Shown: positions 892 through 15,132 of the stretch, piece by piece
Layout: each line of letters opens with the position of its first letter
Position numbering within the stretch: the first letter of the stretch is position 1
Position numbers and translations under genes: made by a program
Notes under the pieces: model-generated
Told to the model about the DNA's origin: nothing
Database searches by the model: none
What the model saw: only the letters and a program-made list of their open reading frames with translations
IMG/VR virus record: IMGVR_UViG_2627853771_000002
Length of the DNA: 15,132 nt
Reading direction: 5' to 3' (one strand)
Source of the DNA: a virus
Taxonomy: Duplodnaviria > Heunggongvirae > Uroviricota > Caudoviricetes

Positions 892-981
892 GGAGAGATG
901 CCGGAGCGGCTGAACGGACCGGTCTCGAAAACCGGAGTAGGGGCAACTCTACCGGGGGTTCAAATCCCCCTCTCTCCGCCA
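892..981 (+). tRNA. serU: tRNA-Ser, anticodon CGA
   Basis: GGAGAGA...TCTCTCC acceptor stem, discriminator G and terminal CCA; anticodon loop CUCGAAA gives anticodon CGA; long variable arm typical of class II tRNA-Ser; TTCAAATCC T-loop. Folded by eye. Confidence 0.9.
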
Positions 982-1093: not shown

Positions 1094-2068
1094 TCATCTC
1101 ATTTTCTTGTTCAACGTGGGGCTGATTTTAACTTTCCTGTCGTAAACAAGTACCTGTGATTCTGTCTTATGACCACTGAATTTTTGCTTATCCCTGCCAG
1201 ATCCTTCATAGTCTGAGATCCCTTTAGCCTTTAGATCATGGAAGGTGCAATCAAGTGGCCTACCAAGTTCTTCAGAAGCCGCGTTTCTCGCTTTTCTCCA
1301 TGCTTCATTAAATCCCTTGTATGAATAACGCTCACCATACATTGTCCTGATAACAGGGCCATCCTGTCCCCATTCCCTGCAAATATCCACAGCCGCACTA
1401 AGACGCTCAGTCCAGGCTTTGATCTGTTTAATACCAGTTTTACCTTGCTGTATGAAAATTCCTTTATCAAGAATCTGATTCCAGTTCATTTTAAGAACAT
1501 CAGATACCCTTGCAGCGCAAAGATACGCAATTTCCATCGCGGCTTTAACTGCAGGTGTCGCATGAGTGAAGATAGCTATGTACTCTTCATCAGTTATGTA
1601 GCGGTCGCGCTGGGGTTTAGGAAACTTATCGACACCAACACACGGATTACCTGGTACATAACCACGCTGATAACCCCAGCGGTATACACGAGACATTGAA
1701 CTATGCTCGTGATTAGCCTGAACACGGCTTCTTTTACCACGTGCATCCATGTAGCGTCGGACGTGTTCTGGTTTAATGGCCTTTGCTTCTGCATCGCCGA
1801 AAACCGCTAACAAGTATTTTTCATGTGCCAGGTAATCTTTTTGTGTCCTGGGGGCAAGGTCTGCATAGTCAGCACTATTTAAAAATTTTTTCCACAATTG
1901 TTGAAAGGTGAGTAGTTTTTTTCGACCTTCAACGACTTTCTCGTAAGCTAACCAAACCTCCGCTTTAGAAGCGTTTGCTGGGGCTAGATTCTCGGTAGTA
2001 CCTCCTGGCTTCCAGTAGTAACCGGAAGGGCGGAAAAACACACCCTTCGGCATCCACTCATTCAGCAT
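1094..2068 (-). CDS. Tyrosine-type site-specific recombinase (phage integrase)
   Basis: Minus-strand ORF of about 324 aa; C-terminal region carries an integrase-like motif (FHDLKAKGISDY). It ends 113 bp from the tRNA 3' end and reads toward it, the usual prophage arrangement. Start taken as ATG at 2068-2066 (TTG at 2071 is also possible). Confidence 0.85.
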   Translation of the reverse strand: MLNEWMPKGVFFRPSGYYWKPGGTTENLAPANASKAEVWLAYEKVVEGRKKLLTFQQLWKKFLNSADYADLAPRTQKDYLAHEKYLLAVFGDAEAKAIKPEHVRRYMDARGKRSRVQANHEHSSMSRVYRWGYQRGYVPGNPCVGVDKFPKPQRDRYITDEEYIAIFTHATPAVKAAMEIAYLCAARVSDVLKMNWNQILDKGIFIQQGKTGIKQIKAWTERLSAAVDICREWGQDGPVIRTMYGERYSYKGFNEAWRKARNAASEELGRPLDCTFHDLKAKGISDYEGSGRDKQKFSGHKTESQVLVYDRKVKISPTLNKKMR

Positions 2069-2216
2069 CAATCACATCTTGGGATACAGACGCTTGGATA
2101 ATATCTGCTTCGCTATAGTCGCCCCGCATAACCAGAAAACGAGCCTCATCGGAGCAGAGGTAATCAACTGCCCCATCAAATTTCCCCTTGCTGGTTGGTT
2201 TGGTTACGTTGCTCAT
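2058..2216 (-). CDS. Small hypothetical protein (52 aa) in the excisionase position upstream of the integrase
   Basis: ATG at 2216-2214 preceded by GGTGGA; translation MSNVTKPTSKGKFDGAVDYLCSDEARFLVMRGDYSEADIIQASVSQDVIDAE. Its start overlaps the upstream stop as ATGA and its end overlaps the integrase start. Below the 60-aa cutoff of the ORF track. No recognisable Xis motif. Confidence 0.4.
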   Translation of the reverse strand: MSNVTKPTSKGKFDGAVDYLCSDEARFLVMRGDYSEADIIQASVSQDVIDAE

Positions 2217-2347
2217 GCTGTCCACCATTCAATAAACATGCAGATACCAACGGTTACTACGGCAATCAGCACCCAGCAGATCACATCTAACAGGGCGGCG
2301 AGCCGACGCAGGGTGTATTTGCTGTAATTCTCAGGTTCAAAATTCAT
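2213..2347 (-). CDS. Small single-pass membrane protein (44 aa)
   Basis: ATG at 2347-2345 preceded by GGAGG; translation MNFEPENYSKYTLRRLAALLDVICWVLIAVVTVGICMFIEWWTA with a hydrophobic C-terminal half. ATGA overlap with the ParB-like stop and with the next ORF's start. Confidence 0.4.
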   Translation of the reverse strand: MNFEPENYSKYTLRRLAALLDVICWVLIAVVTVGICMFIEWWTA

Positions 2348-3129
2348 TGCGCCTCCCCAAGCACCCAGCGCAGAGCCTCGGCATATTCGCCACTGGCATC
2401 TTCGAGTGCTTTTGTAATTTCTTTGCGGGTTTTCAGGCGCGGCTTTGCATCACCGAGGATCTGACGCTGACGCCGAGCTTTTTCATGGCCCGTGGTGCCG
2501 GCGGTCGCTGTCTCGATCTGCTTGACCTTCTCTCGTTGCTCTTCGGGTTTAAGCGATGCCAACTGACGCGCCTGGGTAACAGTGACCGTTCCGGACTCCA
2601 CTGCATCGCGAACAGCTTGGGTGGCATCCAGCAGTGACAGAGTTGCGCGTACGGTCTGGACACTCACGCCAAACATCAGCGCTAAATCATCCTCATCGTG
2701 CCCGCGCTCCAGCGCATCAGCCATTTTCTTTGCTCGGCCTAGCGGCGTATCTGCCTGGCGGATTTCGTTAGCACTTACCATCGCCTGCGCCATGCGAATG
2801 GCAGAGCCACGTTTAGGGACTCCCGGAACCAGTAACGGTTCTTTGCCCAATTTTGACAGACGCTTATTGGCTTCCAGTGTATGGCGCACACGCTGGCGAC
2901 CATCAACCACACAAGACAGCCCTGTTTCCGGGTCTTTCCAGACGATAATCGGCTCAAGAACGCCCTGGTCCATGATGTTCAGCACCATTGCCTCGCTGAT
3001 AGGCAGGTGGATACGCTCATCGTAAAGCGGGTGCGTTTTGTCGGTAACCAGGTGCAGTTTTTCAGGTTCAAACGCTAAAACGTTCGTTTTGCCACTCGCG
3101 CCATATACCAGCTTTGAGTCTTTAGCCAT
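2344..3129 (-). CDS. ParB-like nuclease-domain (ParB/Srx fold) protein
   Basis: 261-aa ORF with a ParB N-terminal-domain-like core (EPIIVWKDPETGLSCVVDGRQRVRH) and an HTH-like segment (DDLALMFGVSVQTVRATL). Start ATG at 3129 shares its A with the upstream gene's TGA (TGATG). Confidence 0.7.
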   Translation of the reverse strand: MAKDSKLVYGASGKTNVLAFEPEKLHLVTDKTHPLYDERIHLPISEAMVLNIMDQGVLEPIIVWKDPETGLSCVVDGRQRVRHTLEANKRLSKLGKEPLLVPGVPKRGSAIRMAQAMVSANEIRQADTPLGRAKKMADALERGHDEDDLALMFGVSVQTVRATLSLLDATQAVRDAVESGTVTVTQARQLASLKPEEQREKVKQIETATAGTTGHEKARRQRQILGDAKPRLKTRKEITKALEDASGEYAEALRWVLGEAQ

Positions 3130-3428
3130 CAGAGAGCCTCCACGTTACGGAAGCTGGTGGGGCAAATTGCCTTCAAATCGCGCATAGCCTCTAGAACATG
3201 CATATTTGTGCGATTCTTGGTGTGTCGCTCGGTCAGGCGATCACACTCTTTCGCCCATGATTTGACCTCTGCAAGAAGGGCGTCACGTTCGGTGCGCGTC
3301 TGGCGCAGAGCTACATTCGAAACATCGAGGACGGTAGCCAGTTCCTTGATGATTGCTGCCTGTTCTGGTGGCATAGTTTTGGCTATTTCGTACGCCTGTT
3401 TAATCAGTTGTTTTGCTGTCTTAGCCAT
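3129..3428 (-). CDS. Hypothetical protein (99 aa), first gene of the leftward operon
   Basis: ATG at 3428-3426 preceded by GGAGAA; translation MAKTAKQLIKQAYEIAKTMPPEQAAIIKELATVLDVS.... The ORF track extends to 3479 only through a TTG. No family recognised. Confidence 0.55.
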   Translation of the reverse strand: MAKTAKQLIKQAYEIAKTMPPEQAAIIKELATVLDVSNVALRQTRTERDALLAEVKSWAKECDRLTERHTKNRTNMHVLEAMRDLKAICPTSFRNVEAL

Positions 3429-3721
3429 CTTTTGTTCTCCATCTGACGCTCTGCAACGCGTAAATTTAGGGTGCAGCAACCCAACCCATGAGAATGGGTG
3501 AATAGCTGGTTAAAATTTCTTGCTGATGGGGGACCGCCACTGCAATGGCGGTACGTTAGTTCTCCACACAACACAGAAGAGCACCTGCGGCCGCAAATCC
3601 GCTCGGGCGGATTGTGTTAGGGCACGTCACTCGGTGGTGCTCTGATGTCTTTTGTAAAAGGGCGAACCAGAAACAATGGGGAAACTGGTGCCGCCAAGAT
3701 GACATAGTCCATCAGACTCAC

Positions 3722-3772
3722 TTGATGTTAGGTTATGCCTAATGTCATGTCAATAGGCTTAGCCTAATGTTG
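3722..3772. promoter_or_regulatory. OL-like operator pair with an overlapping leftward promoter
   Basis: Two palindromes: ttaggt-tat-gcctaa (3728-3742) and ataggc-tta-gcctaat (3753-3768). On the minus strand a -35 TTGACA (complement of 3748-3753), a 17-bp spacer and a -10 TAACAT (complement of 3725-3730) overlap them. Confidence 0.5.
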
Positions 3773-3781
3773 GTCGGCGGT

Positions 3782-3807
3782 CAAAAAAAATCCCGCATAA
3801 GCGGGAT
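3782..3807 (-). terminator. Rho-independent terminator ending the repressor operon (hairpin plus T-run on the minus strand)
   Basis: Stem ATCCCGC/GCGGGAT (3790-3807) with loop ATAA; an A8 run at 3782-3789 on the plus strand is a T8 run after the hairpin on the minus strand. Lies between the native stop of the nuclease-like gene (3838) and the operators. Confidence 0.5.
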
Positions 3808-3837
3808 TTGTGTGAAATAAAGCTAGTGTTTTTATGA

Positions 3838-3882
3838 TTATGGACGACGCTTTCTGAAATTCTCATCATTCTGTACATATTG
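3838..3882 (-). other. Orphaned native 3' end (14 codons plus stop) of the IS1-interrupted nuclease-like gene
   Basis: Joining the reading frame of CDS 4660-5769 across the target duplication continues ...L-QYVQNDENFRKRRP-stop, with TAA at 3840-3838. Confidence 0.45.
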
Positions 3883-3891
3883 TAAAGAATC
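3883..3891. repeat. IS1 target-site duplication, left copy (TAAAGAATC)
   Basis: The 9 bp immediately left of the IS1 end are identical to 4660-4668. Confidence 0.85.
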
Positions 3892-3946
3892 GGTGATGCT
3901 GCCAACTTACTGATTTAGTGTATGATGGTGTTTTTGAGGTGCTCCA

Positions 3947-4222
3947 GTGGCTTCTGTTTCTATCAGCTGTCCCTCCTGTTCAGCTACTGACGGGGTGGTG
4001 CGTAACGGCAAAAGCACCGCCGGACATCAGCGCTATCTCTGCTCTCACTGCCGTAAAACATGGCAACTGCAGTTCACTTACACCGCTTCTCAACCCGGTA
4101 CGCACCAGAAAATCATTGATATGGCCATGAATGGCGTTGGATGCCGGGCAACTGCCCGCATTATGGGCGTTGGCCTCAACACGATTTTACGTCACTTAAA
4201 AAACTCAGGCCGCAGTCGGTAA
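3947..4222 (+). CDS. insA: IS1 InsA
   Basis: 91-aa [43 protein letters not shown]..., recalled as IS1 InsA. Confidence 0.9.
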
Positions 4223-4644
4223 CCTCGCGCATACAGCCGGGCAGTGACGTCATCGTCTGCGCGGAAATGGACGAACAGTGGGGCTATGTCGGGGCTAAAT
4301 CGCGCCAGCGCTGGCTGTTTTACGCGTATGATAGTCTCCGGAAGACGGTTGTTGCGCACGTATTCGGTGAGCGCACTATGGCGACGCTGGGGCGTCTTAT
4401 GAGCCTGCTGTCACCCTTTGACGTGGTGATATGGATGACGGATGGCTGGCCGCTGTATGAATCCCGCCTGAAGGGAAAGCTGCACGTAATCAGCAAGCGA
4501 TATACGCAGCGAATTGAGCGGCATAACCTGAATCTGAGGCAGCACCTGGCACGGCTGGGACGGAAGTCGCTGTCGTTCTCAAAATCGGTGGAGCTGCATG
4601 ACAAAGTCATCGGGCATTATCTGAACATAAAACACTATCAATAA
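4141..4644 (+). CDS. insB: IS1 InsB (expressed as an InsAB' fusion by -1 frameshifting)
   Basis: 167-aa [28 protein letters not shown]... in the -1 frame relative to insA, overlapping its 3' end. Confidence 0.85.
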
Positions 4645-5769
4645 GTTGGAGTCATTACCTAAAGAATCAAGGATTAAACCTGAAATCCTTAATACATCCT
4701 CGGGATGTTCAATGAAAATACGATTGTTATCATGTTCAAGTCCGGCTCTTTTAATTTCATTACCGGTTATTTCATTGATATCAATTGGTAACTGTATGTT
4801 TGAGCGATTCTTCTTGTCATAATAGCGAACCAGCCAGCGGTTTGTTTTTCCTTGGAAAAGAATAGAGTAATAGGACTCTGTATCTTTGGCTTGAAGTTCG
4901 TATGCAGGGCCTATAATAGAACAGATTTTTTCAAATAAAATTCTTTCATTATAGGTTGTTACTATGTTGGGGTTCTCTGCATCGACAATATCTGCGCGCT
5001 CATCAATTACATTATTTTCAGTTACATCAGCAGGGGATTCTAATTCAGGAATAGATGTTCTTGATGAAAGACCAGAAACAACCATTTCACTTACTGACCT
5101 CTCTACGGCCTGCCTCACCAATGGAGTTATTGTTTCTATAAATCTTTGATTTAATTGACGACCAATATTTGCTCGTCCTGCAACATATCTAACAAATTCA
5201 TGATCTACTTCCCGAAGGCTTGTACTCACGACTTTAACAAATGCAGAAATATAAACACTCTCTTCTGCAAGGGTTCTTAGGGCCTCTGGTTTGAATTTGT
5301 CATGGCGGAATCTAAATAATTGCTCAGCATCAGAATCTTTAATGTCATCCATCATGATTCGTAAAAATGGCGTTGAATCCATTATATTTTTTTCATTGAG
5401 ATCCGTAAAAAAGCGCCATTCAATTCCATTAGTAATTGCTGATATTGTCACCTCAGGAGTAGAATTAAAATACCTAGATAATTGAGGACAATGGTTGTCC
5501 ATTTTTTCTTTACAACCTTTGGCCTCAATAAACATAACGGGAACACCTTGGCAGAATAGAGCATAATCTACACGCTCACCCACTTTCACACCAGGGAAGT
5601 CCGCACCATATTCAGCTTTGACTTTTTGCGGATCATATGCGTTAAAGCCTAGGATGTCCAAAAAAGGAAGTATCAAAGCCTGCTTGGTTGTCTCTTCCGT
5701 TGTGCAGTGTTCTCTAACATTTTTAACATGTTCAATGTGATTTTTAAGACGTACTTTGAAGTTTTCCAT
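4579..5769 (-). CDS. Repressor-linked protein with an HsdR-N-like PD-(D/E)xK nuclease N-terminal domain and an uncharacterised C-terminal domain; 3' end replaced by IS1 sequence
   Basis: ATG at 5769 (MENFKVRL...) after GGAGGA. The first 130 aa or so follow the pattern I associate with the type I restriction HsdR N-terminal nuclease fold (D...VDYALF...[10 protein letters not shown]...QLSRY...TNG). Codons 4660-5769 are native; 4579-4659 are read from the IS1 right end. Lies downstream of, and on the same strand as, the repressor gene, inside the operator-bounded immunity region. Confidence 0.6.
4660..4668. repeat. IS1 target-site duplication, right copy (TAAAGAATC)
   Basis: Identical to 3883-3891. 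Confidence 0.85.
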
Positions 5770-5939
5770 GCATCCTCCATGCAAAGTGAAAACCTGCTGT
5801 TAAATCAAAGCAAGTCACAATCCCGGATAGGCTTCATACAAGCCAATCCCCCACAGGGATTGAGTTATGCAAGCGAATCAATCTCAGAGCTTTTAACATG
5901 TATGGAGCTTAGAGATATTGTCCGTTAGACCATATAAGC

Positions 5940-6416
5940 TTAAGCTCTGGCTTTCGTTTGTTTTTTTCCATCTTCCTCCTGCTCTGCCCATCTCCTTATC
6001 TTCATCTCTAATGAGTCTAAATATGCTTTAGCATCGCTATCTACCCAGCCAGGTATACGCTGTCCTTGCTCTAAGAGGACAAAATCAATGATAGCCTTTT
6101 TTTCTCTCGAAGCCTTATTATAGAGCTCGTCAATAGAACCATTTTTAACTATGGGATCTGTTGCGGGCTCACATGTATCAGTTAGCGGGTATCCCTTTAG
6201 TCCCCAGTGCTCGGGGCCCACAACATCAGAAAAGTAGTTCCAAAGCTCTGGTAGCTTCTCTTTCGATATGGAGCCTTTATTGATCCAGTCATGGATTGAT
6301 GGGGGTTTTATTTTGAAATGACGTGCGATTTCCGCCTTACTCTTGGCAGAACCTATTGAAAGCTTCTTGTCTATGGCCTGCTCGATCGCTCGGCCCAATT
6401 CTTTACCACTAAGCAT
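5940..6416 (-). CDS. CI/RacR-like helix-turn-helix repressor with no S24 peptidase domain
   Basis: 158-aa ORF with an N-terminal HTH-like segment (LSGKELGRAIEQAIDKKLSIGSAKSKAEIARHFKIKPPSIHDW); no Ala-Gly/Ser-Lys autocleavage features seen. Divergent from a Cro/YdaS-like gene across an operator-containing region. Confidence 0.7.
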   Translation of the reverse strand: MLSGKELGRAIEQAIDKKLSIGSAKSKAEIARHFKIKPPSIHDWINKGSISKEKLPELWNYFSDVVGPEHWGLKGYPLTDTCEPATDPIVKNGSIDELYNKASREKKAIIDFVLLEQGQRIPGWVDSDAKAYLDSLEMKIRRWAEQEEDGKKQTKARA

Positions 6417-6443
6417 TGCCTAATAATCCTCATAACCTATAGC

Positions 6444-6486
6444 TTAGGCAATTCCTATTGATTGTTTATTAGGCTTAGCCTAATAT
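6444..6486. promoter_or_regulatory. OR-like operator region with a rightward promoter
   Basis: Perfect 8+3+8 palindrome TATTAGGC-TTA-GCCTAATA at 6467-6485 and a degenerate copy at about 6444-6459. -35 TTGATT (6458-6463), 17-bp spacer, -10 TAATAT (6481-6486); the palindrome sits in the spacer. Confidence 0.55.
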
Positions 6487-6517
6487 CTGCTTGTGTGGAA
6501 ATCATAGGAATCCGTTT

Positions 6518-6781
6518 ATGAGAAGTAGCCTTGAAGCAATCAGTGAAGCCTGCCGCATTGTTGGGGGACAAGCCGCTTTGTCAAGGAATCTAGGCATCTC
6601 ATCACCAACAGTGAATCAATGGACAACGGGCATTAGGCAAATACCTGCGGAACGATGTCCTGCGATTGAGAAAGCTACTGGTGGTGCTGTCACCTGCGAA
6701 GAGCTTCGTCCTGACATTGACTGGGCCTATTTAAGAGGTGCAGCAATGCGAAAGCTTAATGTCACTGCATCAAATTTGTAA
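6518..6781 (+). CDS. YdaS/Cro-like HTH regulator
   Basis: 87 aa from the ATG at 6518 (AGGAA seven nt upstream). Motifs GGQAALSRNLGISSPTVNQW...IPAERCPAIEKATGGAVTCEELRPD match my recollection of the YdaS/Cro-type family. The ORF track starts at a TTG at 6491. Confidence 0.7.
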   Translation: MRSSLEAISEACRIVGGQAALSRNLGISSPTVNQWTTGIRQIPAERCPAIEKATGGAVTCEELRPDIDWAYLRGAAMRKLNVTASNL

Positions 6782-6809
6782 CTACCACCCGAGTTTGAAA
6801 GGAGTAGGT

Positions 6810-7262
6810 ATGAACCTCAAAGAAGTCGTGAAATCTATGTGCAAAGCATATCCAGGTGGGCGCGAAGCAATGGCTGGCGCACTGGGAATGACGGTGACGC
6901 AGTTTAACAACAACCTTTACGAGAAAAACGGCTGTCGTTTCTTCGAAGTCAGCGAACTGGAAGCGATGGAGGACATCTCGAATACATCTCACCTGGCTGA
7001 ATATTTTGCCCGCCGTCGTGGTGCTCTGCTGGTGGATGTTCCGCACCTGGAAGAACTGGACCGCGTGGACTTGTTTAGCCGGGCAATGCGTACCTCTGCC
7101 GCCAGGGGGCAGGTTGATCAGATTATCGAACAGGCGCTTGAAGATGGCGTTATTGAAAGGCACGAGGCCGAAGAAATCATGGTGCATCACCGCCGTCACC
7201 TGGCAGCTCGTGAAGAAGAGATTGCCGCAATCATCACGCTTTTTTCACGCAAAAAGAAGTGA
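6810..7262 (+). CDS. CII-like / YdaT-like regulatory protein
   Basis: 150 aa from the ATG at 6810 (AAAGGAG five nt upstream), directly after the YdaS-like gene as in Rac-type prophages. Family assignment is from position and general resemblance only. Confidence 0.45.
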   Translation: MNLKEVVKSMCKAYPGGREAMAGALGMTVTQFNNNLYEKNGCRFFEVSELEAMEDISNTSHLAEYFARRRGALLVDVPHLEELDRVDLFSRAMRTSAARGQVDQIIEQALEDGVIERHEAEEIMVHHRRHLAAREEEIAAIITLFSRKKK

Positions 7263-7289
7263 CGCCAGCGAGTTGCAGCTCCTGGCGTC

Positions 7290-8129
7290 GTGGCGTGTCG
7301 TTATCAGTGGAGATTACTAACGCATGAACAGTTTATCAACACAATACCGCAGGTCGCAACTTGTAGCGCGGCCAGTTCCTGGTGGAGCAGGGCCGGTGCA
7401 GTTCGTGTAGAGCCATTCGTTGGTGGTGGGTCGGTATTCCTGAACAGCGAAAAGCACGCAGATTACCTGCTGGCGGACGTTAACCCGGACCTGATTAATC
7501 TGTATCAGATGTTAGCGGTCGTGCCGGATGAAGTGGAATTGAAGGCCCGCTGGATGTTCGAGCACATGCGGTCACCAGAGCGCTATGAGCTGATCCGTTC
7601 CGAGTTCAACTCTCAGACGCTGGATGCTACTGAACGCGCAGCTGCATTCCTGTATCTCAACCGGCATTGCTTCAATGGTCTGATGCGCTACAACCAGGCG
7701 AACAAGTTCAATGTGGGCTGGGGAGGCTACAAGGCTCCGTATTACCCGATGGATGAGATGAAAGCCTTCGCGGCTATGGCGCATAACTGCGTATTCATGA
7801 CGGCTGATTACCGCCGGACAATCAGCCTGGCCGGGAAAGGGGATGTGGTTTACTGCGATCCGCCTTACGAACCGATGCCGGGAACAACCGGATTCACCGC
7901 CTACGCCGCTGGTGGTTTTAACTGGGAGAACCAGGTAGACCTGGCGAAGCAATGCGTATCAGCCTTTCACCGTGGGGCTCGGGTAGTGATTTCTAACTCA
8001 TCTGCACCGAAGGTTCTCGACCTGTACCGGGAGCATGGTTTTAACCTGCAATTCATCAACGCGCGCCGTTCGATCTCCTGCAAAAGCAGTACGCGGGAAG
8101 TCGCAAAAGACGTTGTAGCGATCCTTTAA
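7290..8129 (+). CDS. DNA adenine methyltransferase (Dam family, N6-adenine)
   Basis: Motif I EPFVGGGSVFLN and motif IV CDPPYEP; overall resemblance to E. coli Dam (FLYLNRHCFNGLMRYN, ISNS). The only in-frame start after the upstream stop is the GTG at 7290; the nearest ATG (7324) is out of frame, so the start is uncertain. Confidence 0.75.
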   Translation: MACRYQWRLLTHEQFINTIPQVATCSAASSWWSRAGAVRVEPFVGGGSVFLNSEKHADYLLADVNPDLINLYQMLAVVPDEVELKARWMFEHMRSPERYELIRSEFNSQTLDATERAAAFLYLNRHCFNGLMRYNQANKFNVGWGGYKAPYYPMDEMKAFAAMAHNCVFMTADYRRTISLAGKGDVVYCDPPYEPMPGTTGFTAYAAGGFNWENQVDLAKQCVSAFHRGARVVISNSSAPKVLDLYREHGFNLQFINARRSISCKSSTREVAKDVVAIL

Positions 8130-8138
8130 GGGGGCTAA

Positions 8139-8981
8139 ATGAAACTGACTTTACCATTTCCACCGAGCGTAAATAGTTACTGGCGCGCCCCGAGCAAGGG
8201 ACCGCTGAAAGGCAGGCATCTGGTAAGCGAGACAGGGCGCAAGTTCCAGCAGGCAGCGAGAGCGGCGATTATTGAGCAACTGCGGGCCGTTCCCCGGCCA
8301 TCCTCAGATCTGGCCGAGGTTCACATAAACGTTGTTGAGGGCGCGGGGCTTGAGCTTGATCCTGATGATGATTCACAGGTTCTTAAAGCGATTGGTGGCG
8401 GTCGCCTGCTTAATATTGTCACCTTTACTAAGTCAGGGACTTACACTCCAACTAAAGGGACGAAAAGAGTGCGGGTGAAAGTTTGGGGAGCGGGGGGAGG
8501 TGGCCAGAATGCTCCAGTTAGTGTGGGCGCATCTGGAGGTTGTGCTGGTGGATTTTCGGAAGGGTTATTTAATATTTCTGATAACGAAACTATATCTGTG
8601 ACGATAGGTACTGGTGGCAGTGCTGTTGCTGCTGGTGTCTCGTCTAAAGGCGGGAATGGTGGTGATACAAGGTTCGGGAGTTTAATCTCAGCTACTGGAG
8701 GGAGTGGTGGCGGGGCTACAGTTCCTGCTGGAGGTATCGGAAGTGGCGGGAACATTTTAAATATTACTGGCGAAATATCTCAAGGTGGTCTGTATTATGG
8801 TTCTGATGCTTTTATTGGCGGGGCTGGAGGATCTGCATTTTCATCAACGGGTGGCAATGGCCACTTCGGTAGTTCTGGCGATGATGGCGGTTTCCCCGGC
8901 TCAGGTGGTGCCGGGGGGAATGGTAACTATTCATCAGGAAAAGGAGCGAATGGTTTAGTTTACCTTGAAGAGTTTTCCTGA
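8139..8981 (+). CDS. RusA-like N-terminal region fused in frame to a glycine-rich, fibre-like C-terminal region
   Basis: N-terminus MKLTLPFPPSVNSYWR... resembles the RusA resolvase N-terminus (ITLPWPPSNNRYYR), and ...GGGRLLNIVTFT resembles the RusA C-terminus. From about aa 110 the protein is a GGxGG-rich tract of about 170 aa. ATG at 8139 follows AAGGGGG. Confidence 0.5.
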   Translation: MKLTLPFPPSVNSYWRAPSKGPLKGRHLVSETGRKFQQAARAAIIEQLRAVPRPSSDLAEVHINVVEGAGLELDPDDDSQVLKAIGGGRLLNIVTFTKSGTYTPTKGTKRVRVKVWGAGGGGQNAPVSVGASGGCAGGFSEGLFNISDNETISVTIGTGGSAVAAGVSSKGGNGGDTRFGSLISATGGSGGGATVPAGGIGSGGNILNITGEISQGGLYYGSDAFIGGAGGSAFSSTGGNGHFGSSGDDGGFPGSGGAGGNGNYSSGKGANGLVYLEEFS

Positions 8982-10051
8982 TTATTTTTGCTTTGAGCGT
9001 CCGCCCTTATTTTTGCTCTAATTTTAATTAGTGGCTTGTCTATTAATATTACACAAACGATCCCAAGTGCAATTGATATTGGGTAGCCTAATAAAAAGAT
9101 GGATAAGCCACGATTTTCACCACCAATAGCAAGCCATGCTAGAAATCCACCAAAATATTGACAAAGAAAAATTGGATAGGCCAGGTCACCAAACCACTTG
9201 AGTATTTTCTCAAGATGTATGTTTGTCTTTATTTTTAATAATACCAGGGTTGTAAACAATGCTATTACATTATTGGTGTAGTAAAGTATTATGTTGTACT
9301 GACCTAATGGATTAATTGTATATAAATGCCAATTGGTAATAAAAATCCCGATGCAAATAAATGTTATTAAAAAAGCTTTGTGTGGAGAAAGATACATAGC
9401 TTTGAACTTTCTATGGGCAAAATAACCCAGAGAACCCATGCTAAAAGGAAGTGTTGCAGCAAGGAATGGGAAATACGCCATATCAAAAGAATGGTGTACT
9501 ACATATACGTAAGCATGATAAAGCAGTGAAAGCAGAATCGACGTAATGGCTGTAAATTTATTTCGGGCTATGAAAAGCCACAATAAAAAATAACATGTTA
9601 TCTCAACACCCACTGACCATGATGATGTGACTATTCTGAATCTATTACCATCAATAGCAAAGTGATAAATGGATGAAAAGGCACCGAATGGATTTGCTAC
9701 AGCATTATCAGAAAGGAAAGCCCAGGGGAAGATTAAGAGGTTTCCTAATAAATCTCCAGGTAAGAAATTGCCTGTCCAGTTTGAGTGGAATTCCTTTGCG
9801 GATGGAATTAATTTTATAATAAGAAAGCCCATGACGAGAAAAAATATATATGCCGGGAATAACCTCAGTATTCTATTTTTCCAAAACATAGAGAAGTTGA
9901 ACTTGTATGTTTCATGCAAAATGTATGTTATTAAAAAACCACTAATAACATAGAAGCAATTCACTGCAAAGTTGCCAAGTGCAGGTATGCGAGCCGTTAA
10001 GTGAAAAGCAATGACGCACGATGCCAAAAAAAACCTTATTAGGCCAAGCAT
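8960..10051 (-). CDS. Acyltransferase-3 family integral membrane protein (O-antigen O-acetyltransferase-like, Oac/OafA type)
   Basis: 363-aa very hydrophobic ORF with motifs typical of the family (RFFLASCVIAFH, FYVISGFLITY); strongly AT-rich relative to its flanks. Its 3' end overlaps the convergent glycine-rich ORF by about 22 bp. Confidence 0.75.
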   Translation of the reverse strand: MLGLIRFFLASCVIAFHLTARIPALGNFAVNCFYVISGFLITYILHETYKFNFSMFWKNRILRLFPAYIFFLVMGFLIIKLIPSAKEFHSNWTGNFLPGDLLGNLLIFPWAFLSDNAVANPFGAFSSIYHFAIDGNRFRIVTSSWSVGVEITCYFLLWLFIARNKFTAITSILLSLLYHAYVYVVHHSFDMAYFPFLAATLPFSMGSLGYFAHRKFKAMYLSPHKAFLITFICIGIFITNWHLYTINPLGQYNIILYYTNNVIALFTTLVLLKIKTNIHLEKILKWFGDLAYPIFLCQYFGGFLAWLAIGGENRGLSIFLLGYPISIALGIVCVILIDKPLIKIRAKIRADAQSKNNQENSSR

Positions 10052-10314
10052 TATTTTATCTCCGCGCCAATATCGCGCATTTTATTTATTACATTGTTAA
10101 GTTGCTCATCAGACAGAACAAGCTGAGCTGCAATATAAAACAGTATGTGTCTTGACATTACCCTGGGGCTCTCTCCGCCAGTGTATTTCCGCCATTGGCT
10201 ATCGCTGGCTACACCTGCGAGCCCTGCCATTTGGTTTCCGGAGTAATTTAGTGCGGATTTCAGTCTGGCTAAATCTTCCTGCGTTGGAGGGGTGTATTTA
10301 TTTATTAAAATCAT
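10051..10314 (-). CDS. Small XRE-type HTH protein co-transcribed with the acyltransferase
   Basis: 87 aa from the ATG at 10314 (track ORF starts at a GTG at 10338). HTH-like segment LARLKSALNYSGNQMAGLAGVASDSQWRKYTGGESPR. Its stop overlaps the acyltransferase start (TAATG). Confidence 0.5.
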   Translation of the reverse strand: MILINKYTPPTQEDLARLKSALNYSGNQMAGLAGVASDSQWRKYTGGESPRVMSRHILFYIAAQLVLSDEQLNNVINKMRDIGAEIK

Positions 10315-10415
10315 TCTCTTATTTAACCGTTTAAACACGTAAGGCGATGTTAGCCCTGAAGGGGCGGGGCGTCAATCTTAATTGCTTCATTGAAAAGATG
10401 AAGACAGGAACAGGT

Positions 10416-12410
10416 ATGGACAAAAGATATAATACCGGCAATCCAAGACCTTCAAATAGCATGAAGGATCTGAATGATAACGCCCTGGCGTACGATGATT
10501 TCCTGAACAGCGAAAGCGATACTTTTATAGATCGTTTTGGTAACGCCCAGGATACGATAATTGGGGCTACTAAAAAAATGGCAGCTGCTACCGACGCTGT
10601 TATTGATGAAGCCCGCCAAAACCTGATCCCTCTCAGCCGGCAGTACATGACGCTGGCGGCGGCGCAGGCGGATATTGCGAATATTCCGGCAGGTTCAACA
10701 ACCTATGTCCGCAGTCAGGACGGAAGCTCTCTGGCCGATGAGTATATCAACCTCGCTGGAACGCTGCAGCCAACCGGACGGCGGATGGTTCGTGACGACT
10801 ACGCATACCAGGTATCGCCAGACAGCGTGACCCTGGCAGCATATGATCCGGAGACTTCCCGCGTGGCTCCATTTTTAAATACAAGCGGCAGATTAATTCA
10901 AATCGGTCCTGACGGAAAATATTACGAACTTTTAACCCAACAAGAATCCGAACTCTATGCGCTGGGCCGGGAGGGTTCTATACCGCAGTTTATTGGCGGT
11001 GAAAAAGTGTGGCGGATGACGGTTGATTCAACCACAAACCAGATCGTTGAAGCTTATACGGTTGGTGGGAAGCACTGGATTTACTCAGACGGTGGCCTGG
11101 TAGCTGTTAATAACGGAAATGGCGGTGGTGGTGGCGACGATGATGCCAACCAGCTCCCTGAGTATGGACTTCATTTGTCAGGGTCTACTGTGTACCCCTA
11201 CTCAGAGACAGTGCCTGTATGTTTTATCTTTGTGACTGCTGGGCAATCCAACGCTCGAGGATATTGTCCTGACGCCGATCAAACCATTGTCGCAGCAACG
11301 CCGATATATCCTGATAACGCTTTCATGCTCAGCGGCGGGGTTAGGCGTACAGGGACACGCAGCACTACTCTGGTGCCACTGGTTGAGGCAGTAAGTGGGA
11401 CAGATAAAGAAACGGCCGCAAGCGGCCTCGCGAACACCTTCATTCGCGATATGGCTGCAGCTACCGGAATCATGCCGCGCACGCTATCAATCGTATGTGC
11501 GCAGTCTGGTCAGGCTTACGAGTACCAGAAACGGGGTAACCAGGTATATCAGTATCTGCTCGATTCAATCGAAGACTGCGTAACGGCCTGTAAAGCACGC
11601 GGCTGGCTGCCGATTGTTCTCTGCGTTGACTGGATGCAGGGAGAGTCCGACGAGGACTGGTCAGGATTACGAGAAGGAATGTATGAATCACGGATGAGGC
11701 AGTACCAGAGACAAATCACCAGCGACATCATCGCAAGAACGGGTCAAAACGAACCGCCGATTATCGCCATTACCCAGCTGGGGTATGTCAATGACGGGCA
11801 TGGTGCATTTACAGGCCAGTACGCGCGACTGGCGTCGACGCGATTGCACGGAAAAGAGCAATTCAGGCTGGTCAATAGTTTGTACCAGTACGATTTTATT
11901 TCAGACGGTCTGCACTTGACGTGTGCGGGCCAGAACCGGCGCGGAGCAGCTGTGGCGAGAGCGCTTCTCCAGGAGTGGTTTACGAGCGGCTGGTCAGGGA
12001 TGGTTCCGACCAGTTTCGTGTGGAACTCACCCACGCAGATACAAATCAATGTCCCAGCGTATACGAACCTGGTGCTGGACACGACTACGATCAACACCTC
12101 CGGTCTGGCCAATTACGGCTTTAGCTACACGGATGAGACTGGTGCTCCACCTGCTATATCGAGCATCGCGATCAGCTCGGACGGCAAGGGCGTGCTGATT
12201 AACCTGGCGACCGCCCCCTCTGGACGTTTTGGGCGCGTTTCCTATGCGACAGCAGAAAACCCACTTCAGAGCGGCGCATCTGTAAAACCTTCCGGGCGGA
12301 CTCTTGGTGCAAGAGGGTGTGTTCGATCTTCCGCTGGAATCATATGGGTGTATGACACATCCGTGACTCTTTACGACTGGCTCCCCGCTTTTCGTATTAA
12401 CGTTTTCTGA
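10416..12410 (+). CDS. Tail-fibre/tailspike-like protein with an internal SGNH/SASA-type carbohydrate esterase domain
   Basis: Esterase block motifs in order: GQSN (VTAGQSNARGY, nt about 11241-11252), QGESD (DWMQGESDED, nt about 11631-11651) and DxxH (SDGLHLT, nt about 11904-11918). A Gly/Asp linker (NGNGGGGGDDD) precedes the domain. Start taken as the ATG at 10416 (AGGAACAGG upstream); the maximal ORF begins at 10347. Confidence 0.55.
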   Translation: MDKRYNTGNPRPSNSMKDLNDNALAYDDFLNSESDTFIDRFGNAQDTIIGATKKMAAATDAVIDEARQNLIPLSRQYMTLAAAQADIANIPAGSTTYVRSQDGSSLADEYINLAGTLQPTGRRMVRDDYAYQVSPDSVTLAAYDPETSRVAPFLNTSGRLIQIGPDGKYYELLTQQESELYALGREGSIPQFIGGEKVWRMTVDSTTNQIVEAYTVGGKHWIYSDGGLVAVNNGNGGGGGDDDANQLPEYGLHLSGSTVYPYSETVPVCFIFVTAGQSNARGYCPDADQTIVAATPIYPDNAFMLSGGVRRTGTRSTTLVPLVEAVSGTDKETAASGLANTFIRDMAAATGIMPRTLSIVCAQSGQAYEYQKRGNQVYQYLLDSIEDCVTACKARGWLPIVLCVDWMQGESDEDWSGLREGMYESRMRQYQRQITSDIIARTGQNEPPIIAITQLGYVNDGHGAFTGQYARLASTRLHGKEQFRLVNSLYQYDFISDGLHLTCAGQNRRGAAVARALLQEWFTSGWSGMVPTSFVWNSPTQIQINVPAYTNLVLDTTTINTSGLANYGFSYTDETGAPPAISSIAISSDGKGVLINLATAPSGRFGRVSYATAENPLQSGASVKPSGRTLGARGCVRSSAGIIWVYDTSVTLYDWLPAFRINVF

Positions 12411-12419
12411 GGATAAAAA

Positions 12420-13220
12420 ATGAGACTGATTTACACACTAACTGGACTGAATAACCCCTTACTCCCTGTGTACTCACAAACAGCGGCAGAGAAAGCGATC
12501 TCAGAACTATCCCCATCAGTATGGACACCAGTGAAGACAGAGTTTCTAAAAATGGGGTCTGGTGCAAAAGTAGTAGCTATCTCTAACCGATTAGATGGCG
12601 GACTTTTCAAGTCACTGGAGACCCTCGAGCCATCCACAAAGCTGAATGGTTCTGTTTTGCAGGGGCTTAATTTCTCCGGTGCATCCGGCATGGCTGGTGA
12701 TACGGCGGTGGTTATGGACGCAAACATCAATACTTTTGCATTCATCTATCAGCTGCCAGGTGGGGCGCTTCCGGCTACGCCACAGGACAGAGCGGTTATC
12801 GCAACCCAGGAAAGCACACCTCATGGCGTCGGCATTCGTACAACGTCAGCAGGTTCATTCCCGATTTTTCTGAATGGAGGGATCGAGGCCGATCTGGCAT
12901 TTACTCCTAACAATATAGGGCAATCTTTATTCTGCGCTGTAGTTATGTGCTCTAACAAGGCTGCTGGATCCTATGCAATTGCATACCAGCGGTCAGATCA
13001 GTCTGCAGTGACCAGCCGACAAGTGACGGGCTATACAATCCCAGCGTATAGCCCGTCTCAAAAAATGAGTATTGGCGGAGCAGGCAATGGTTCAGTGTCT
13101 CCGTTAACATCCGTTTTGTCAGAATGTTTGGTTTTCCCCGGCAAATATGCATATGGGACCAGCACACTGGATGTCATCCTGGCATATCTGATGGAGAGGA
13201 TTGGAAAAATCACGGCCTAG
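12420..13220 (+). CDS. Hypothetical 266-aa protein co-transcribed with the fibre/esterase gene (possible fibre partner or assembly protein)
   Basis: ATG at 12420 lies 6 nt after GAGGA and 9 bp after the upstream stop. No recognisable motif. Confidence 0.5.
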   Translation: MRLIYTLTGLNNPLLPVYSQTAAEKAISELSPSVWTPVKTEFLKMGSGAKVVAISNRLDGGLFKSLETLEPSTKLNGSVLQGLNFSGASGMAGDTAVVMDANINTFAFIYQLPGGALPATPQDRAVIATQESTPHGVGIRTTSAGSFPIFLNGGIEADLAFTPNNIGQSLFCAVVMCSNKAAGSYAIAYQRSDQSAVTSRQVTGYTIPAYSPSQKMSIGGAGNGSVSPLTSVLSECLVFPGKYAYGTSTLDVILAYLMERIGKITA

Positions 13221-13254
13221 AATTTGCCGAATGCATCCGAGTCGGTCCGCAGCG

Positions 13255-13413
13255 ATGGAGCAGGAGAGAGTCGGCGGCCGCCGCCGGATAATGACTGAAG
13301 AAGTGGTGGAGCGGTGCCGCAGAATGCTGGAGAACGGCGCTACCCGGCAGCAGGTGGCTGATGTGACAGGCGTGGACGTGAAAACAATCTACAAGTACCT
13401 CCCGGCGACTTGA
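13255..13413 (+). pseudogene. 3' fragment of a serine DNA invertase gene (Hin/Gin/Pin-type C-terminal HTH only)
   Basis: ...GGRRRIMTEEVVERCRRMLENGATRQQVADVTGVDVKTIYKYLPAT-stop resembles the C-terminal HTH of Hin/Gin/Pin invertases; no catalytic N-terminal domain precedes it, because the upstream sequence is the end of the 266-aa gene. Confidence 0.55.
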
Positions 13414-13490
13414 AGGCAAAGATTTCACTACTTTTCCTGATATGTTACGTTTGGCTTAATCAATTCATTCAGCTTTGAAAACAGTTTGGT

Positions 13491-13913
13491 TTGTTCGTGA
13501 ACGGTAAGAAAACAATAAGTTTTGAGCAATTTTTAACTATTAACAGCAATCTTGTTTCCATCTCAGATACATGGGCTGACTTGTGGGCGTTAATTTTTCA
13601 CACGGGTTTAAGCGCTGGAAGGCTGCTGAGTATTCGATATGATGATATTGATGGTGACTTGATACTGATACGAAAACAGGGTCACCTGAAGGAGCTACGT
13701 GTTAAATCAACCCCTCCAGTGGAGGGGATCATTGCTCGTAGAAGAGAACGCTATCCAGAAGATGTTTTTTTATTTCAGAGCCATTCTAACCGTGTGAAGT
13801 ACCAATGCCGGCCGGTCACTATAATTGCTTTCAACGCCGCTTTACGTCGCGCCGCTAGATCATTACCAGACGTTAACGTAAGCAGTAGTAGCGCGAGAAA
13901 CATACCGGACTAA
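13491..13913 (+). pseudogene. FimB/FimE-like small tyrosine recombinase remnant, C-terminally truncated and degenerate
   Basis: Box-I-like region LWALIFHTGLSAGRLLSIRYDDIDGDLILIRKQG parallels FimB/FimE, but the catalytic Arg position is Ser and the His/Arg/Tyr C-terminal motifs are absent. No ATG start (TTG/GTG only). Confidence 0.4.
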
Positions 13914-13931
13914 CCGCCTGTCCAGTCGCGT

Positions 13932-13985
13932 GTGGCCGATGTGACAGGCGTGGGGGTGAAGACTATTTACAAATATTTGCCAGTA
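13932..13985 (+). repeat. Second diverged copy of the invertase 3'-end segment
   Basis: gtggccgatgtgacaggcgtgggggtgaagactatttacaaatatttgccagta encodes VADVTGVGVKTIYKYLPV; most differences from copy 1 are synonymous. In frame with ORF 13491-13913 but separated from it by a TAA. Confidence 0.5.
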
Positions 13986-14003
13986 CAATACGGCGATAAA
14001 AAC

Positions 14004-14029
14004 CCCCTTGAGCAGGCACACTCAAGGGG
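14004..14029 (-). terminator. Hairpin with a T-run on the minus strand; possible terminator for leftward transcription
   Basis: CCCCTTGAG (14004-14012), 8-nt loop, CTCAAGGGG (14021-14029); the preceding plus-strand AAAAA is a T-run after the hairpin on the minus strand. Confidence 0.3.
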
Positions 14030-14140
14030 AAAATACTACATAACATCATTGCTGTGTGCGTCTTTGCGCTCGTCTATCTTCCAAGAATATGCCTAAAGCT
14101 TCCAGATATTTCTGGTCTGAGCTGTTACATCATGGAGTAG

Positions 14141-14198
14141 GTGCCGATGTGATAGGTTAAGAGCGAAGATGATCTGTAAGTACCTTCCGACGTCGAGG
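14141..14198 (+). repeat. Third, more degenerate copy of the invertase 3'-end segment
   Basis: gtgccgatgtgataggttaagagcgaagatgatctgtaagtaccttccgacgtcgagg aligns with copy 1 (gtggctgatgtgacaggc...aaaacaatctacaagtacctcccggcgact). Confidence 0.35.
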
Positions 14199-14533
14199 GG
14201 CAATGACCATGAATTTGGGTCTATACCATCCCAATTCATATATTCTTTGTAAGTCTATGAAATATAGAGCAAAGTATTCTGTTCGAAATGAACCATATGG
14301 AATAGCCAAAGGCTAAAATGCCCAGAGTAAAAACAACAATCAGCAAGTCCGTCTGTGACATCTTATATCCATTTTGCAGTAGCAGGTTTTGAGAAAAGAT
14401 AGTTCATAGTTGGCACATAGACAACATAATCACTAAGTGAAACCAATATCAGAGGCTAAAAGGTGACTGGTTTCCTCCTCAGTGTTCCTGATTGATAGCT
14501 GGAACCTGTATTGATCAGATCTCTTAATGAATC

Positions 14534-14553
14534 TACTGTATATAAAAACAGTA
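14534..14553 (+). promoter_or_regulatory. LexA (SOS) box overlapping a promoter
   Basis: TACTGTATATAAAAACAGTA matches the E. coli consensus TACTG(TA)5CAGTA at 18 of 20 positions (CTGT-N8-ACAG intact). A possible -35 TTGATC lies at 14510-14515. Confidence 0.75.
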
Positions 14554-14571
14554 TTTTCGGGAGGTGAAGTT

Positions 14572-14730
14572 ATGCCGCGAAACTCAGATATCGAAATAGC
14601 CTGGCGTCAGGCAATTGTCATTGAGCCTAATGGCCGTCGCACCGTGACAACGTCCGGTTTTATCCGGGAACTCGCAAAAGTTAACTGGATATGGTCACCG
14701 CGCCAGGCTAACCAGTGGATAGAGCACTGA
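14572..14730 (+). CDS. Small hypothetical protein (52 aa) immediately downstream of the LexA box
   Basis: ATG at 14572 lies 7 nt after GGGAGG; translation MPRNSDIEIAWRQAIVIEPNGRRTVTTSGFIRELAKVNWIWSPRQANQWIEH; stop 9 bp before the UmuD-like start. No family recognised. Confidence 0.45.
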   Translation: MPRNSDIEIAWRQAIVIEPNGRRTVTTSGFIRELAKVNWIWSPRQANQWIEH

Positions 14731-14739
14731 CATTCCGGG

Positions 14740-15132
14740 ATGTCTCAACGCAGGAAGGCGATGAGCTCACGTTCCAGTTATACAACCCAAACGGAGGGCT
14801 ATAACGTGGGATTTCCGTCGCCAGCTGCTGACTATGTTGAACGGCGTCTGACCGTTGATTCACTCTGCGGTACCGGCCCCAATACTCGGATAGTACAAAC
14901 AGAAACCGGCTATGCCGTAGTGGATTGCTTCGTAAAACCAAAGCAAGGAGATACCGTTTTAATTCAATACGGCGGCGGCACTGATTTTGCAAAAATTATG
15001 GGCCGGGCATTTATTACACGAGACGGTGAAGCGTTGGAAGGTGAGGCCCTGGATGATGTTACAGTTGTCGGGGTAGTGACATTCGTTATCAATCGGATAG
15101 GGAAGGATGATGATGATTATCCAGTAATATGA
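14740..15132 (+). CDS. UmuD-like (peptidase S24-like) protein, apparently lacking the catalytic serine and the Cys/Ala-Gly cleavage site
   Basis: GFPSPAADYVERR matches the conserved UmuD/MucA/RumA segment and the C-terminus (DDVTVVGVVTFVI) matches UmuD (LDVFGVVIHVV). Where those proteins have GDSM/GSSM, this one has GYAV, and VG replaces CG/AG before FPSPAADY. An alternative start is the ATG at 14761 (AGGAAGG upstream). The stop TGA at 15130-15132 overlaps an ATG at 15129. Confidence 0.7.
   Translation: MSQRRKAMSSRSSYTTQTEGYNVGFPSPAADYVERRLTVDSLCGTGPNTRIVQTETGYAVVDCFVKPKQGDTVLIQYGGGTDFAKIMGRAFITRDGEALEGEALDDVTVVGVVTFVINRIGKDDDDYPVI

Follow-up and report, generated by a model that had tools for sequence, protein, structure and literature searches.

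The window analyzed here, which is the whole stretch of 15,132 nucleotides from IMG/VR virus record IMGVR_UViG_2627853771_000002 (Caudoviricetes), holds a prophage remnant inserted at a tRNA-Ser(CGA) gene (892-981) beside mtfA. Within this remnant, a repressor gene of the racR type stands back to back with two short open reading frames, here called ORF1 and ORF2, which are read the other way and together occupy positions 6518-7262. Our subject is what this pair encodes, and whether it makes the host dependent on the repressor. The genes on which the argument rests are the following.

892..981, plus strand: tRNA-Ser(CGA), the integration site (attL side), located with ARAGORN and Rfam.
5940..6416, minus strand: racR-type immunity repressor gene, 158 aa, assigned by NF049929 and by identity to K-12 RacR.
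6518..6781, plus strand: ORF1, a ydaS-type cro gene of 87 aa with ATG start, assigned by PF15943 and PF14549.
6810..7262, plus strand: ORF2, a cII-like gene (phage 186 CII / YmfL family) of 150 aa with ATG start.

The tRNA gene is the sole match in an Rfam scan of the window, and its 3' part recurs about 270 bp past the window end in locus L001 and in E. coli HS, as judged by blastn. ORF1 and ORF2 are co-oriented, diverge from racR and are separated by an intergenic gap of 28 bp. An AGGAG sequence precedes the ATG of ORF2 by 5 nt; a longer reading frame from GTG at 6738 is not the start chosen in RefSeq. All three genes are annotated by RefSeq in nine complete E. coli genomes, under the names "racR", "helix-turn-helix domain-containing protein" and "YmfL family putative regulatory protein". 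The initial annotation of this DNA, made from the letters alone, had placed two rightward reading frames in 6518-7262, and their coordinates agree with both the list of open reading frames and RefSeq.

The repressor matches the NCBIfam equivalog model for RacR (NF049929) with 254.3 bits against a cutoff of 200 and is 56% identical to K-12 RacR over 152 aa. ORF1 scores 104.4 bits against PF15943 (cutoff 30), with further Pfam matches to P22_Cro (PF14549, 30 bits) and HTH_3. It is 56% identical to YdaS of Rac, and its sequence matches in the Protein Data Bank (PDB) are prophage Cro proteins (3BD1, E-value 2.8e-11). The PF15943 match and the identity to Rac YdaS bear out the earlier view that a Cro/YdaS-like helix-turn-helix (HTH) protein opens the rightward operon.

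The second protein of the pair belongs elsewhere. ORF2 scores 53.9 bits against PF06892 (Phage_CP76; cutoff 26) and 204.9 bits against the YmfL-family equivalog NF041471, whose cutoff is 90; at 6e-45 it also matches PHROG 101, the "CII-like transcriptional activator". With YmfL of e14 it shares 24% identity, and both e14 YmfL and phage 186 CII, run as controls, match PF06892 too. No match of ORF2 to the YdaT family PF06254 was found at E<=0.01, where the control, K-12 YdaT, scored 44.7 bits; BLASTP gave no alignment with YdaT, and hhalign returned a probability of 0.1%. Likewise, ORF2 had no match to the lambda CII family PF05269, for which lambda CII itself gave 163.8 bits, and hhalign was not significant. 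The hhalign comparisons of the ORF2 family profile with 186 CII, YdaT and lambda CII used profiles that were too shallow, so that none reached significance.

Structure prediction points in the same direction. A first AlphaFold2 (AF2) model of ORF2, built on a shallow alignment with no sequence below 68% identity, reached a mean pLDDT of 57.8 and was unusable; a second, with e14-branch homologues added to give an alignment of 55 sequences, reached 79.7. The second model has a five-helix N-terminal HTH domain followed by two long C-terminal helices. Its top eight Foldseek matches in the PDB are all chains of 6VPE, 6VLI and 6VMH, the phage 186 "Regulatory protein CII", with probabilities of 0.89-1.0 and modest E-values of 0.02-0.17. 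The YdaT structures 3C4R and 8BT1 were in the PDB copy searched and fell outside the top 50 Foldseek matches. The YdaT box TTGATT-N6-AATCAA has no match anywhere in the window. An identity of ORF2 with YdaT is thus ruled out by Pfam with its positive control, by BLASTP, by hhalign and by the fold search.

The pair is therefore a YdaS-type Cro with a 186-type CII, not YdaS with YdaT. The initial annotation had called the second protein CII/YdaT-like; the CII half of that label stands, in the 186 type (PF06892), and the YdaT half falls. The profile searches it had proposed accordingly gave YdaS (PF15943) and a CII-type family (PF06892), and neither YdaT (PF06254) nor lambda CII (PF05269). We see a corrective value in this result. 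With Pfam names like "YdaS_toxin" and "YdaT_toxin", such loci are easily taken for toxin loci; here, the pair is Cro plus 186-type CII and the toxic effector of Rac is absent. The same applies to a reading of ORF1 and ORF2 as a type II toxin-antitoxin (TA) pair, for which nothing but the historical Pfam naming of PF15943 speaks. We consider it to have hardly any chance of being right and reject it: ORF2 lies outside PF06254, a TA relation has been rejected by all experimental studies of ydaS-ydaT (PMC5700373, PMC5700377, PMC8630535, PMC5917428), and both proteins are HTH regulators that occupy the Cro and CII slots of an intact phage.

The control elements around the three genes follow the Rac pattern. 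In Rac, DNase footprinting has yielded the RacR operator (T/A)TAGGC-N3-GCCTA(T/A), of which three copies lie in the intergenic region, with O3 over the racR ATG (PMC9638921). The pattern WTAGGC-N3-GCCTAW, allowing one mismatch at most, has 4 matches in the window where 0.12 would be expected. With O3, which deviates further, the sites and the promoters and terminators near them are these.

6411..6425, no strand: operator O3, TAAGC-att-GCCTAA, placed over the racR start codon and deviating from the consensus by 2 mismatches.
6444..6458, no strand: operator O2, TTAGGC-aat-TCCTAT, 1 mismatch, conserved in Rac and in Klebsiella phage KpF5.
6469..6483, no strand: operator O1, TTAGGC-tta-GCCTAA, a perfect palindrome, 0 mismatches.
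6458..6486, plus strand: putative rightward promoter pR, TTGATT at 6458-6463, 17 nt, TAATAT at 6481-6486, read from the sequence.
3725..3767, minus strand: OL/pL, operators 3728-3742 and 3753-3767 around TTGACA-17-TAACAT, from pattern search and promoter scan.
3788..3809, minus strand: leftward intrinsic terminator, 9-bp stem and T-run, ending the transcript of racR and the HSDR_N gene before pL, from a terminator scan.
7250..7289, minus strand: intrinsic-terminator-like hairpin (7261-7289) with U-rich tail (7250-7260), from a fold of the minus-strand RNA.

O3 aligns base for base with the published O3 of Rac, which likewise covers the racR ATG. O1 lies within the spacer and the -10 element of the putative pR, 25 bp from O2, center to center. 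The putative pR agrees with the consensus at 8 of 12 positions, which is under the threshold of the promoter scan; judged by where it lies and by comparison with PydaST of Rac (PMC11879457), 6458-6486 would nevertheless be the only plausible rightward promoter. As RacR-type operators overlap this putative promoter, direct control of the rightward operon by RacR, already proposed in the initial annotation, is well supported at the level of sequence. The second cluster, 3725-3767, looks like a lambda-style OL/pL, so that RacR-type control would reach the leftward operon too. An operator pair with the same 25-bp spacing is found directly 3' of racR in K-12 Rac (L004, 4630-4669) and in KpF5 (L006, 6707-6746). 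Overall, the locus has what a lambdoid immunity region has: a repressor gene divergent from cro, a multi-site OR, a separate OL and, in intact relatives, cro and cII ahead of the replication genes.

Sites at which the CII-like protein itself might act were looked for as well. The window has no match to the 186-type CII site ATGTTTG-N13-CAAACAT. Where ORF1 and ORF2 join, a TTTGA-N18-TCAAA repeat was considered as a CII target and dropped, since it is unconserved in relatives that share the cII-like gene. Promoter scans and motif searches of the window gave no convincing candidate for a leftward establishment promoter or CII binding site for racR, and the papers searched yielded nothing useful on the biochemistry of 186 CII. 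Inside ORF1, a leftward promoter-like site (6584..6557, minus strand, TTGACA-16-AACAAT) is the only such match in the region; compared with PracR4, the functional reverse promoter inside ydaS of Rac, its codon position differs, and the two are not positionally homologous. The hairpin at 7250-7289 extends over the final codons of the cII-like gene and its stop, has an unremarkable fold z-score of -1.1, and no promoter was identified for the leftward transcript that it would end; by its place, it may correspond to the lambda oop terminator.

We regard it as very probable that 6518-7262 encodes the Cro-type (YdaS) and CII-type (186 CII/YmfL) regulators of a lambda-style switch, left in a remnant of a KpF5-like prophage at tRNA-Ser, and that the intactness of the region reflects the youth of the remnant. 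By homology and by the conservation of the operators, RacR would bind O1-O3, thereby shutting pR and regulating its own gene, and would silence pL from the OL pair. When RacR is lost, the YdaS-type Cro would be made first and the 186-type CII second, as the arrangement with the 28-bp gap suggests a bicistron. In the intact phage, Cro and CII would set the choice between lytic and lysogenic growth, and CII may drive leftward establishment transcription of racR, by analogy with 186 CII at pE and with YdaT at PracR4/PRE (PMC11879457, PMC8630535). In the remnant, this switch would be a stranded relic, as the replication gene is deleted, the N-terminus of dam is lost and the whole stretch between rusA and the tail fibre is missing.

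The cassette is found in intact form in Klebsiella phage KpF5 (OR327748), a complete phage of 38.3 kb from wastewater. From the HSDR_N gene to the end of ORF2, window and KpF5 share 97% nucleotide identity (blastn), and the proteins are 100% (RacR, "prophage repressor" in KpF5), 97.7% (YdaS) and 97.3% (CII-like) identical. The integrase and the tRNA-Ser attachment region are also common to both. Downstream of the cII-like gene, KpF5 has a small DUF4222 reading frame, then the replication gene, dam and rusA, and after these a DUF968 gene and Q; other prophage contexts resemble KpF5, with genes for DUF4222, replication, Dam, RusA, Q and lysis after cII. The window departs from KpF5 at the following features.

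7408..7409, no strand: deletion junction with 1282 bp lost relative to KpF5, from blastn, the junction sequences and the Dam N-terminus.
7335..8129, plus strand: dam methylase gene, N-terminally truncated and re-fused (PF02086, TIGR00571).
8139..8981, plus strand: rusA'::glycine-rich tail-fibre fusion reading frame, residues 1-63 matching PHROG 34 (RusA) and 81-280 tail-fibre PHROGs, the latter residues being a C-terminal portion of the fibre protein.
3892-4659: IS1 in the 3' end of the HSDR_N gene, with boundaries and 9-bp target duplication from blastn against L002.

Lost with the 1282 bp are the DUF4222 reading frame, the replication gene and codons 1-24 of dam. Homology to KpF5 Dam begins at residue 25 of the KpF5 protein, the FLKWAGGK motif is gone and foreign upstream sequence is fused in its place (7290-8129); RefSeq still calls the product "DNA adenine methylase". 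A second junction at 8326/8327, near codon 63 of rusA, where homology to E. coli HS starts at 8326 and homology to KpF5 ends at 8327, marks a deletion that removed Q and the lysis, head and tail genes. The RdgC region and the region next to int have been lost as well, and because of the latter deletion the remnant appears to have no route of excision.

E. coli HS (NC_009800.1, 2052732-2081706) carries a reciprocal remnant at the same chromosomal tRNA-Ser site. It keeps a fragment of the same integrase gene, the late genes from terminase to baseplate and tail fibre, and, at 99.99% identity, the same acyltransferase/esterase region; the window positions compared with it are 1345-1681 and 8326-15132. 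Nothing equivalent to window positions 1682-8325 is left in HS, so that racR, ORF1 and ORF2 are all gone. The HS-type and the window-type remnants must derive from one complete prophage. The same reciprocal remnant was also seen in two O9:H10 pig isolates. That the window holds a degraded prophage, as had been stated from the sequence, is thereby established against both KpF5 and HS.

These comparisons bear on the further suggestion of the initial annotation, namely that the element is kept by addiction to its own repressor, as de-repression of the pair would be toxic to the host, and that this explains an intact immunity region in an otherwise degraded prophage. The Rac literature bears on the idea. 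In Rac, racR could not be deleted unless ydaS-ydaT had been removed (PMC5700373), and silencing of racR caused cell death and filamentation (PMC5700377). YdaS was found to be toxic in these two studies and not in a third (PMC11014345); there, Gucwa et al. reported that "YdaT, but not YdaS" lowers viability, an effect that depends on rcsA and does not need Rac. Binding of YdaT to the rcsA promoter was shown by Wons et al. (PMC11879457). Jobling has argued for seeing proteins of the YdaS/YdaT type as Cro and CII regulators, and repressor essentiality as a trait generic to relic prophages (PMC5917428); the same paper cites the toxicity of over-produced lambda CII and lists the repressors of Qin and e14 as essential. 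Here, RacR and YdaS are true homologues of their Rac counterparts and the operator layout is conserved. The RacR-controlled leftward operon, moreover, retains uncharacterised genes, among them a conserved 44-aa hydrophobic reading frame.

Several observations speak against a toxic pair of the Rac kind. YdaT, the best-documented killer in Rac, is absent, and because the second gene belongs to PF06892 and not to PF06254, its route to toxicity through rcsA is not transferable; YdaS was non-toxic in the work on that route (PMC11014345, PMC11879457). The YdaT homologue of CP-933P is non-toxic (PMC8630535), and e14 YmfL, the nearest studied relative of ORF2, caused no filamentation when induced from pBAD24 (bioRxiv 10.1101/2020.11.19.390815). 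In Rac, YdaS is a strong repressor of its own promoter (PMC11879457), which would limit expression after de-repression, and genes further downstream with a possible contribution have been removed or cut short in the window. HS has lost the entire early region without trace. Addiction could at most protect racR for as long as the pair is present, and cannot maintain the element.

The distribution of the genes among carriers weighs little either way. All three are present in 9 complete genomes and in 23 contigs with the rusA'::fibre fusion, with AB66 (NZ_OZ547461.1, L003) as the sole exception. There, an ISEc52 of the IS3 family splits ORF1 at about codon 45 (window 6650-6652) with a 3-bp duplication, which cuts the cII-like gene off from its promoter and leaves racR intact; it is the only disrupted copy of the trio that we saw. 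A broken racR next to an intact pair was not seen in about 30 near-identical carriers, and the sole disruption lies in ORF1; both points count in favor of the idea. The carriers, however, are 99.95-100% identical, with about 3 substitutions per 9.4 kb. Because the copies are so alike, they do not discriminate, and the absence of racR mutants carries no weight. For the same reason, an intact region of 1.3 kb is expected without selection. The remnant has decayed only by large deletions and insertion sequences, and the intactness of the immunity region would reflect youth rather than need. The toxin/addiction proposal finds partial support and is weakened by the lack of YdaT.

On balance, we hold it unlikely that a toxic pair kept in check by the repressor, as in Rac, accounts for the survival of racR and the immunity region, and we give the narrower statement, that racR is non-deletable here because of 6518-7262, an equally low standing. 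No greater likelihood attaches to the broader prediction that RacR-type repressors are conditionally essential wherever the cassette survives, even where a 186-type CII replaces YdaT, with the de-repressed Cro, the CII-like protein or the 44-aa peptide being lethal. If racR were essential in this remnant, dependence on a Rac-type repressor would need no YdaT, which would be a modest extension of the work on Rac. "Repressor addiction" would then be a general trait of a cassette that is widespread in Klebsiella and E. coli, and not peculiar to the action of Rac YdaT on rcsA.

A harmful effector could also lie outside 6518-7262, in the leftward operon, whose remaining features are listed here together with the gene that precedes it.

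1094..3479, minus strand: remaining leftward (pL) operon with a 99/116-aa reading frame, a ParB-like gene, a 44-aa hydrophobic reading frame, a truncated small reading frame and the integrase gene, from the list of reading frames, Pfam, PHROG and RefSeq.
2213-2347, minus strand: 44-aa hydrophobic reading frame, PHROG 2936 at 2.9e-26, with a weak holin-like match.
4660..5784, minus strand: HSDR_N/DUF450 nuclease-like gene, placed downstream of racR and truncated at its 3' end by IS1 (PF04313, PHROG 4225).

In this case the 44-aa peptide or the ParB-like protein, and not the Cro/CII pair, would do the damage once RacR is lost. RacR-type operators flank the good leftward promoter at 3725-3767, lambdoid killers of the Kil type are encoded in pL operons, with kil/dicB in that very position (PMC8630535), and both the conservation of the 44-aa reading frame (its PHROG 2936 match) and its holin-like match make it a candidate for a Kil-like small membrane peptide. 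This reading frame adjoins the ParB-like gene in most contexts seen, in an operon under RacR-type operators. The candidates in the leftward operon carry no functional annotation, though, and in Rac, deletion of kilR left racR essential (PMC5700373). We think it very doubtful that the leftward operon holds the effector.

Alternatively, the immunity region may have been retained because it is useful. RacR might confer superinfection immunity against KpF5-type phages, perhaps together with a defence function of the HSDR_N gene, with ORF1 and ORF2 as passengers. RacR is 100% identical to the repressor of the free phage KpF5 and should repress incoming phages that have the same operators. The HSDR_N gene, whose 384-aa product is "type I restriction endonuclease"-like, sits between racR and OL, the slot of rexAB in lambda. 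But KpF5-type phages have been reported from Klebsiella and not from E. coli, and HS manages without the region. The HSDR_N gene has been hit independently, by IS1 in the window and, in mid-gene, in AB66, and has been replaced by ISKpn26 in 13P484A, which argues against selection on it. PADLOC gave no match for the HSDR_N gene, the ParB-like gene or the three regulators, and a defence-system assignment for any of them was dropped on account of these zero matches. A benefit of this kind seems improbable to us, if somewhat less so than an effector in the leftward operon.

If selection has preserved any part of the remnant, the genes on its right side are a more plausible cargo than the immunity region. 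They comprise an acyltransferase gene (Acyl_transf_3, 8960-10051, minus strand) and a gene for a 687-aa protein with SASA/sialate O-acetylesterase domain (10347-12410). The stretch 8960-12410 is kept at about 100% identity in both remnant types and is possibly a module for the conversion of surface polysaccharide. The right end of the window holds debris: HTH_7/resolvase-like fragments at 13201-13413 and 13932-14096, whose peptide ends are near-identical, and an integrase-like fragment at 13491-13913. A UmuD-like reading frame in 14740-15132 runs off the window, just after a RefSeq feature named "DNA polymerase V, frameshifted".

The kind of module to which the pair belongs is known and very common, and this copy of it is uncharacterised. 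In the assembly collection searched, the exact RacR protein occurs in 11,477 blocks and the exact YdaS protein in 3,758, and the cassette is present in thousands of Enterobacteriaceae assemblies. All 20 of the 20 contexts inspected show the order HSDR_N - RacR and, divergently, YdaS - CP76, mostly in full-looking prophages, and the RacR/YdaS cassette is extremely common in prophages of the Klebsiella type. The cII-like gene has matches in 54 E. coli genomes; 9 of these have the whole module, and the other 45 have the gene alone, at 95-99% nucleotide identity. In the two of these that we examined, E. coli ES4 (L067) and YJ4 (L068), the gene is combined with a LexA-type CI and a different Cro, and the mosaic joint falls in the first few codons of the cII-like gene (compared with window 6813-7400).

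Beyond E. coli, a survey of 42 YdaS-family loci in GTDB species representatives informs on modularity, not on toxicity. RacR is adjacent in about 7 of the 42, genes of the PF06892 type stand beside three, and YdaT occurs in only four, with a sequence identical to that of Rac (two E. coli, one E. ruysiae and one contig labelled as a Nanosynbacter metagenome-assembled genome, MAG). The last of these, the Candidatus Nanosynbacter contig L015, has RacR and YdaT 100% and YdaS 99% identical to K-12 Rac, and a contig of Burkholderia sp. LMG 13014 (L010) has RacR and YdaS homologues at 59-76% identity; such enterobacterial-type loci in these two contigs are probably contamination or mis-binning. The combinations of cassettes are normal lambdoid module shuffling. 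RacR/YdaS forms, together with the OR and OL operators, an exchangeable unit that is combined with CII proteins of different families.

Comparison with known systems places the region most closely beside racR-ydaS-ydaT of Rac. The two share a homologous repressor and a homologous first rightward gene (56% identity each), the TTAGGC-N3-GCCTAA half-site pattern, O3 over the racR ATG and the OL pair with 25-bp spacing. They differ in the second rightward gene, which belongs to PF06254 in Rac and to the unrelated family PF06892 in the window. The ydaS leader of the window is 24 bp shorter and does not have the fourth operator of Rac, a nuclease-like gene stands between racR and OL, and the replication genes ydaU/V/W do not follow downstream. 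KpF5 differs in being complete, where the window has no replication gene, no RdgC region and nothing from mid-rusA to the tail fibre, and has gained an IS1.

For the second gene, the nearest known systems are phage 186 and e14. CII of 186 belongs to PF06892 and is the best structural match of the ORF2 model; it is annotated as an establishment activator at the leftward promoter pE (NC_001317). Its identity to ORF2 is only about 18-24%, and 186 is a P2-like phage with Apl instead of a Cro/YdaS partner. In ymfK-ymfT-ymfL of e14, the YmfL-family model that recognizes ORF2 applies to a gene in the same slot, after a Cro-type gene. There, the repressor YmfK is LexA-like, and the division inhibitor gene ymfM follows directly after ymfL; the window has no ymfM homologue.

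In overall design, the region resembles paaR2 and ydaS-ydaT of CP-933P and cI and cro-cII of lambda. The repressors differ, being PaaR2 and CI, as do the families of the CII proteins (YdaT, PF06254, and lambda CII, PF05269), and the window is free of an embedded toxin-antitoxin system. What all three have in common is a divergent repressor gene, Cro followed by CII, and multi-site operators, the arrangement of a bistable switch (PMC8630535).

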